NCBI RefSeq assembly: GCF_003018255.1
Contig: NZ_CP027440.1
DNA from: Escherichia coli
GTDB lineage: Bacteria > Pseudomonadota > Gammaproteobacteria > Enterobacterales > Enterobacteriaceae
Strand: one strand, 5' to 3'
DNA: 64,000 nt
Each line of letters opens with the position of its first letter. Position 1 is the first letter of the stretch. Position numbers and translations under genes: made by a program. Of the stretch, positions 1,821 to 2,324 are shown piece by piece. The notes under the pieces are model-generated. The model did not search any database. It was not told where the DNA came from and saw nothing but the letters and a program-made list of their open reading frames with translations.

Positions 1821-2324
1821 GCAATTGGCACATCCAGCCTGATGCGATGCTGGCGCGTCTTATCAGGTCTACAGGCGGTGTCGGAACGGTAGGCCGGATA
1901 AGGCGTTCACGCCGCATCCGGCAATCGGCACACCATGCCTGATGCGATGCTGGCGCATCTTATCAGGCCTACAGTCGGTGTTGGAACGGTAGGCCGGATA
2001 AGGCGTTCACGCCGCATCCTGCAATCGGCACACCATGCCTGATGCGATGCTGGCGCGTCTTATCAGGCCTACAGTCGGTGTTGGAGCGGTGGGCCGGATA
2101 AGGCGTTTACGCCGCATCCGGCAATCGGTACACCATGCCTGATGCGATGCTGGCGCGTCTTATCAGGTCTACAGGCGGTGTCGGAACGGTAGGCCGGATA
2201 AGGCGTTCACGCCGCATCCGGCAATCGGCACACCATGCCTGATGCGATGCTGGCGCGTCTTATCAGGTCTACAGGCGGTGTCGGAACGGTAGGCCGGATA
2301 AGGCGTTCACGCCGCATCCGGCAA
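1821..2324. repeat. BIME/REP array: five tandem ~100-bp units each containing two REP palindromic units
   Basis: Unit gcaatcggcacaccatgcctgatgcgatgctggcgcgtcttatcaggtctacaggcggtgtcggaacggtaggccggataaggcgttcacgccgcatccg repeats at 1821, 1921, 2021, 2121, 2221 with few substitutions; contains canonical gccggataaggcgttcacgccgcatccggc palindrome. Confidence 0.9.

Follow-up and report, generated by a model that had tools for sequence, protein, structure and literature searches.

The name BIME-2 denotes the type 2 bacterial interspersed mosaic element in the classification of Gilson, Bachellier and Hofnung. BIME-2 elements are built from the palindromic units z2 and y in multiple tandem copies, joined by short linkers that vary by locus (PMC3333891). 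The copies at one locus are highly similar to each other, and strains differ in how many they carry (Ton-Hoang 2012, PMC3333891), single elements ranging in size from 2 to 12 palindromic units (PMC1187871). The model BIME-2 is REP325 of Escherichia coli K-12, which consists of six repeats, in each of which linker l connects a Y palindrome with a Z2 palindrome, and is the sequence on which the Rfam family naRNA4 was built (PMC4550694). REP325 stabilises the mRNA upstream of it and terminates transcription in a partly Rho-dependent manner; more generally, where REPs are located between convergent genes both genes tend to be more highly expressed, and about 40% of these convergent-gene REPs lie within mapped bidirectional terminators (bioRxiv 10.64898/2026.03.23.713779). 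The effects of REPs are context-dependent, and terminal REPs do not uniformly lengthen mRNA half-lives (bioRxiv 10.64898/2026.03.23.713779). Termination of transcription, stabilisation of mRNA and service as a target of insertion sequences (IS) are documented roles of the BIME class.

Organization of the ybcF-purK array

The 3' untranslated region shared by two convergent transcription units in the E. coli DNA analysed here (the window, a stretch of 64,000 nucleotides of contig NZ_CP027440.1) contains a BIME-2 array, made of REP doublets that pair a Z2 unit with an inverted Y unit. The initial annotation had described five 100-bp units in perfect register, with few substitutions, located between convergent ybcF and purK. 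This repeat structure was recovered by Tandem Repeats Finder (TRF; period 100, 5.1 copies, 94% matches, 0% indels and score 903 at 1820-2324), by a gap-free repeat finder, which placed the copies in exact 100-bp register, and by comparison of the five units (1821-2320), any two of which show 1 to 10 differences per 100 positions; the variation is confined to 13 columns and includes no indels. Units 4 and 5 are separated by a single base. The gene context was confirmed by ORF calls and by the RefSeq annotation of E. coli JNE23-011, which names ybcF and purK; this genome matches the window at 100% identity in the flanks and differs from it at one base in the array. The intergenic gap measures 532 bp (1808-2339) and is almost filled by the array, which is wholly extragenic. 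The mapped features are as follows.

914-1807, + strand: ybcF (carbamate kinase, 297 aa), from the ORF call and the RefSeq annotation of JNE23-011
1808-1836, no strand: left junction, with what is left, in degenerate form, of a Y head and a head-to-head linker (GGCAATTGGCACATCCA), from unit comparison
1820-2324, no strand: BIME-2 array of five 100-bp units, that is ten REP palindromic units, from TRF, repeat finder, unit comparison and unit map
1837-1872, 1937-1972, 2037-2072, 2137-2172 and 2237-2272, + strand: Z2 palindromic units, 36 nt, from the fuzzy REP pattern and the alignment to REP325
1873-1888, no strand, repeated in each unit: tail-to-tail linker, 16 nt, AGGCGGTGTCGGAACG or AGTCGGTGTTGGAACG, locus-specific and unlike the REP325 spacer
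1889-1922, 1989-2022, 2089-2122, 2189-2222 and 2289-2322, - strand: Y palindromic units, 34 nt, from the fuzzy REP pattern
1923-1936, no strand, repeated between units: head-to-head linker, 14 nt, AATCGGCACACCAT, which served as a locus-specific probe
2340-3407, - strand: purK (355 aa), last gene of purEK, from the ORF call and the RefSeq annotation of JNE23-011

ybcF, the last gene of the fdrA-ylbE-ylbF-ybcF cluster, and purK are convergent, and the array would be entered by the ybcF transcript from the left and by the purK transcript from the right. The first Z2 stem lies 29 nt downstream of the ybcF TAG stop (1805-1807) and the last Y stem 17 nt past the purK TAA stop (2340-2342). REP-induced ribosome stalling is said to be limited to REPs within 15 nt of the stop codon, as Liang, Rudd and Deutscher reportedly described in 2015, and it probably does not apply here, both spacings exceeding that limit.

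Detection of the palindromic units relied on a fuzzy regular expression, a fixed-length IUPAC REP pattern giving no matches, with Y and Z2 loops that differ in length. Across the whole 64-kb window the fuzzy pattern recovered ten units, every one of them within the array. They alternate strictly, every Z2 on the + strand and every Y on the - strand, in the head-to-head, as well as tail-to-tail, orientation of BIME-2, and their lengths add up to the period exactly (Z2, 36; tail-to-tail linker, 16; Y, 34; head-to-head linker, 14; total 100). The five 36-nt units are of the type GCCTGATGCG...CTTATCAGG(C/T)CTAC and the five 34-nt units of the type GCCGGATGCGGCG...CTTATCCGGCCTAC. The CTAC foot is kept in nine of the ten, the Y unit of unit 3 having CCAC. 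The head-to-head linker reads AATTGGCACATCCA in unit 1 as against AATCGGCACACCAT in units 2 to 5. The degenerate Y head and linker at the left junction explain why TRF counts 5.1 copies rather than 5.

Comparison with BIME-2, REP325 and related elements

The identification of the array as a BIME, made in the initial annotation, can be narrowed to BIME-2, every feature of the published definition that can be assessed from sequence fitting the locus. Besides its extragenic location and the orientation of its units, the array has short linkers (14 and 16 nt, set against BIME-2 by length rather than by the published consensus of the linker subtypes S, s, l and r), a size of ten palindromic units, inside the range of 2 to 12, and units that differ from each other at 1-10% of positions and vary in number between strains. 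No substantive difference from the class was found; the linkers are locus-specific, a trait itself described for BIME-2.

One of the closest counterparts is REP325, located between yjdM and yjdN in K-12. It has the same layout (Y, 34; linker, 13-14; Z2, 36; linker, 16-17; summing to 100 bp), and its palindromic units are near-identical to those of the ybcF-purK array in a unit-by-unit alignment. In the MG1655 sequence REP325 has a period of 100 bp, 5.8 copies (compared with 5.1 here) and 96% matches. However, it occupies another genomic site, both of its linker sequences are different, and it lies between tandem genes inside an operon, whereas the array described here separates convergent genes. 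The claim that the latter is unusually long and regular was not upheld: REP325 has the same period with more copies and a higher percentage of matches, ten palindromic units fall inside the published range (PMC1187871), and five units is the commonest expanded allele at the site itself (see below). The locus is a BIME-2 of an already known kind, and its internal regularity is what is normally seen in the class. As such it leaves the current understanding of REP/BIME elements unchanged and has little importance beyond bookkeeping. The K-12 MG1655 record used here carries no REP features even at REP325, so that the missing annotation at ybcF-purK is uninformative.

The similarity to REP325 extends to the Rfam model built on it. 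Four full-length matches to naRNA4 (RF02564), each spanning a Y unit, the linker and a Z2 unit and aligned as two hairpins, were obtained with scores of 75.4-83.1 bits, compared with a gathering score of 59.5; the - strand scored 48-60 bits against the same model.

1892-1969, 1992-2069, 2092-2169 and 2192-2269, + strand: naRNA4 matches (Y-linker-Z2), from Rfam

Two further systems were compared. With the REPIN/RAYT system the array shares the inverted REP pair that can form one long hairpin and, in nine of ten units, the CTAC/GTAG foot on which TnpA-REP cleavage depends; REPINs, however, are usually described as dispersed single doublets, whereas here the doublets are clustered in tandem. Judged from a near-identical genome, in which the annotation was read over the first 50 kb, the window has no RAYT (tnpA-REP) gene. 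With BIME-1 (RIB or RIP; Y-L-Z1 with an IHF site) the array shares the Y unit and the extragenic location. BIME-1 differs in its Z1 partner, in a long L linker with an IHF site and in being a single doublet, whereas here the partner is Z2, the linkers are of 14 and 16 nt and the copies are many. The IHF core motif WATCANNNNTTR is absent from both strands of 1808-2339, and together with the Z2 partner and the short linkers this led us to reject BIME-1.

Hairpins and transcription signals

The expectation that the block would form stable hairpins was borne out for both strands. Folded as RNA, single units gave hairpins of -12 to -21 kcal/mol on either strand; Z2 hairpins ranged from -17.5 to -20.0 kcal/mol on the + strand, and Y hairpins ranged from -13 to -21 kcal/mol. 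The predicted folding energy of the 558-nt intergenic transcript was -270.5 kcal/mol for the + strand and -244.9 kcal/mol for the - strand, with z scores of -7.55 and -7.57, respectively, relative to dinucleotide shuffles. As an alternative, two adjacent inverted units can form a single long hairpin like that of a REPIN, about 85 nt in length (-42 to -44 kcal/mol), and the predicted fold of a multi-unit RNA can consist of long inter-unit pairings instead of ten separate hairpins. Consensus scans detected no intrinsic-terminator-like site on either strand of 1400-2800 and no promoter-like site in the array.

Unit number at the site varies among E. coli genomes

The initial annotation had proposed that unit number be compared across strains, and such variation was found, with 0, 1, about 1.6, 2, 3, 5 and 6 units observed at the same position. 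When the flanks only (1 kb on either side, without the repeat) were used as a query against 5,426 complete E. coli genomes, 5,425 of them gave a match, and intergenic lengths were taken from an evenly spaced sample of 59 rows among these matches.

126-138 bp: about 24 of 59 rows, one unit
152 bp: 3 of 59 rows, no REP
194-204 bp: about 20 of 59 rows, K-12 type (about 1.6 units)
232 bp: 2 of 59 rows, two units
332 bp: 2 of 59 rows, three units
532 or 533 bp: 8 of 59 rows, five units

The five-unit length recurred at the same frequency (8 of 59) in a second spread sample drawn with a different query. In the representatives that were read, the 132-, 232-, 332- and 532-bp alleles have identical left and right junctions and differ by whole 100-bp units only. 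The doublet of K-12 and many other strains is related to this one but distinct from it, with another Z2 subtype and other linkers, and the 194-bp K-12 allele has an extra Z2.

Expanded alleles were counted with a 49-nt probe spanning the locus-specific head-to-head junction, the number of junctions plus one being the number of units. At least one internal junction, that is at least two units, was present in 1,068 genomes, with 3,188 junctions in all, a median of 4 per genome (five units) and a maximum of 6. Five units is thus the modal expanded allele, with a share of about 12-14% of genomes, among them those of ST131 and of many avian isolates, but not the longest: E. coli DETEC-P881 (L019, 1000-1631) has five junctions, a 632-bp intergenic region with the junctions of the shorter alleles and 6.1 TRF copies, equivalent to six units, and the maximum of 6 junctions implies that a seven-unit allele possibly exists. 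A query of ten synthetic units matched 799 genomes at a coverage of at least 80%, which is not a clean count, as five-unit arrays already reach 100% when two pieces are added up and alignments along internal diagonals are in some cases merged.

A table of the variable positions shows that units have been reshuffled between orthologous arrays. In strain E166 the sole difference from the window is that unit 1 is a copy of unit 3, and the ST131 array is another mosaic with a different right junction. This reshuffling reads as the footprint of unequal exchange or conversion between units.

At the other end of the range, the REP-free 152-bp allele was found at full length in 238 genomes (for example E. 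coli Nord122; L013, 1001-1152). It carries a GC-rich palindrome (CCCCTCGCCCCTGTGGGGAGAGGGTTAGGGTGAGGGGG) whose 50-nt core also occurs at other loci in other genomes and which is thus another small dispersed repeat, one that may resemble boxC. Every allele examined, the REP-free one included, has some GC-rich palindrome.

An IS1397 insertion at the site

The initial annotation had also named the array as a possible IS target, and an insertion was found at the same site in E. coli SK0189 (NZ_AP046539.1), one of the few genomes that lack the left flank. In this strain IS1397 lies between gsk and purK, directly adjoining purK (L016, 2500-4001). On the right it borders directly on TCACGCCGCATCCGGCA, which comprises the last Y unit's loop and right arm, and on the left it borders on the loop of a Z2 unit located downstream of gsk; the whole gsk-to-purK segment, ybcF included, is missing. 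The arrangement looks like a large IS1397-associated deletion between two BIMEs. IS1397 is reported to insert specifically into the palindromic units of BIMEs, a specificity attributed to the work of Clement et al. in 1999 and Bachellier et al. in 1997.

Proposed role and origin

By analogy with REP325 and other BIMEs, the array would most likely act as a block of 3'-end hairpins in both directions, with mRNA stabilisation and partial termination of transcription as its effects. RNA polymerase arriving from ybcF or purK would transcribe into the hairpins, which would stall 3'-to-5' exonucleases, and so stabilise the upstream mRNA, and would attenuate read-through, partly through Rho. By such stalling and attenuation the block would serve as a bidirectional 3'-end element and thus keep the ybcF cluster and purEK from reading into each other. 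As DNA, the array would likely be a gyrase-binding site and a target for REP-specific insertion sequences. The array probably was built by unequal recombination between units, having grown and shrunk in place through unequal recombination or gene conversion between the 100-bp repeats; cleavage by TnpA-REP/RAYT at the CTAC/GTAG feet may have assisted its growth. Termination, stabilisation, dependence on Rho, gyrase binding and RAYT action are all inferred for ybcF-purK from what is described for related elements. In the supplementary tables of the REP preprint purK and ybcF appear in differential-expression lists only, and not as a mapped bidirectional terminator (bioRxiv 10.64898/2026.03.23.713779). 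Taken as a whole, the combination of BIME-2 identity, a bidirectional 3'-end role and growth and shrinkage in place is in our judgement very probably correct. The locus also offers a clean natural allelic series (0, 1, 2, 3, 5 and 6 units, with identical junctions) of a BIME-2 between convergent operons, in which one could ask whether termination, mRNA stability or gyrase loading is tuned by the number of REP copies.

Alternative explanations

The alternative that survives best holds that the array is neutral selfish DNA, which REPIN/RAYT activity and slippage during recombination leave behind, which does not affect the expression of ybcF or purK and whose copy number drifts. Tolerance of 0 to 6 units across strains and unit shuffling as expected from unequal exchange are consistent with it, as is the variable and context-dependent nature of reported REP effects (bioRxiv 10.64898/2026.03.23.713779). 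On the other hand, REPs between convergent genes go genome-wide with raised expression (bioRxiv 10.64898/2026.03.23.713779), no other terminator-like structure is present between these two genes, and some GC-rich palindrome is retained in every allele, all of which argue against it. Neutrality of the element as a whole is a possibility that we regard as doubtful. Since strains with one unit or none are common, however, the function of the array would be dispensable and the extra units may add nothing; their neutrality is a plausible reading, though less likely than not.

A second alternative would place the main function at the DNA level, the array being, by analogy, a cluster of gyrase-binding and cleavage sites that removes positive supercoils between the convergent transcription units. 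BIME-2 is reportedly the BIME class that DNA gyrase binds and cleaves, as Espeli and Boccard are said to have found in 1997, and the position of the array exactly between convergent operons would suit such a function. Yet alleles with a single unit or without REP are frequent, and gyrase binding is compatible with a role at the RNA level rather than exclusive of it. That the array works mainly in this way seems unlikely to us.

Selection rather than drift could hold the five-unit, ten-hairpin state, copy number being a heritable dial on the expression of purEK and the allantoin operon or on gyrase loading between the convergent operons. Five units occur on at least three distinct haplotypes (window/JNE23-011, E166/avian isolates, and ST131 with its different right junction), and no four-unit allele was present among roughly 118 genomes in the two spread samples. 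We consider this an improbable explanation of the predominance of exactly five units; if true it would be of modest interest.

It is more improbable still that the locus encodes naRNA-type small RNAs, each Y-linker-Z2 segment being released, as was originally proposed for REP325 (PMC4550694), as a 77-nt RNA that would bind HU and condense the nucleoid. The four full-length naRNA4 matches (75-83 bits) lie on the + strand, in the sense of ybcF transcription, and would agree with this idea by analogy; however, the Rfam model is essentially a Y plus Z2 REP doublet, so that any BIME-2 matches it, the - strand also scores 48-60 bits, and the array has no promoter-like site. Moreover, REP325/naRNA4 produced no measurable nucleoid compaction and no stable HU-DNA-naRNA4 complex was found, in a preprint whose authors include the senior author of the original study (bioRxiv 10.64898/2026.03.23.713779).

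Finally, a CRISPR-like array or an assembly artefact, suggested by the regular 100-bp spacing and two very weak Rfam CRISPR-DR48 matches (E = 0.34 and 0.87), is refuted and can be given practically no credence: the supposed spacers are the same two linkers repeated rather than unique sequences, the annotation of a near-identical genome has no cas genes in the neighbourhood, the CRISPR-DR48 matches are far below the gathering score, and the same five-unit array recurs in hundreds of independently finished genomes.

Other observations in the window and its relatives

In some strains a hypothetical gene of 330 bp separates purE from lpxH (L016, 5671-6000; L017, 5996-6325), whereas in the window the purE-lpxH gap is only about 90-117 bp and lacks this gene. 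Directly after a tRNA-Arg gene (8825-8901) come a partial integrase gene with a frameshift and an incomplete gene for tail-fibre assembly, and the segment as a whole (8825-9867) is a decayed prophage remnant at a tRNA attachment site.

In the annotation of a near-identical genome, the region corresponding to 20128-30126 encodes an Rhs repeat protein, a papain-fold toxin domain protein, a DcrB-related protein and type VI Vgr genes, and the same annotation places a partial SymE toxin and an ISAs1 pseudogene beside this Rhs/Vgr cluster. Also, within 45011-45768, a small ORF with a frameshift, presumably hok, is overlapped by a match to the Rfam sok antitoxin RNA (45113-45268, 85.7 bits) and lies next to a partial IS4-family transposase. 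A small-RNA match to Rfam ES036 (CssrF) is located on the - strand at 53810-53851, with 44.4 bits compared with a gathering score of 37.6.
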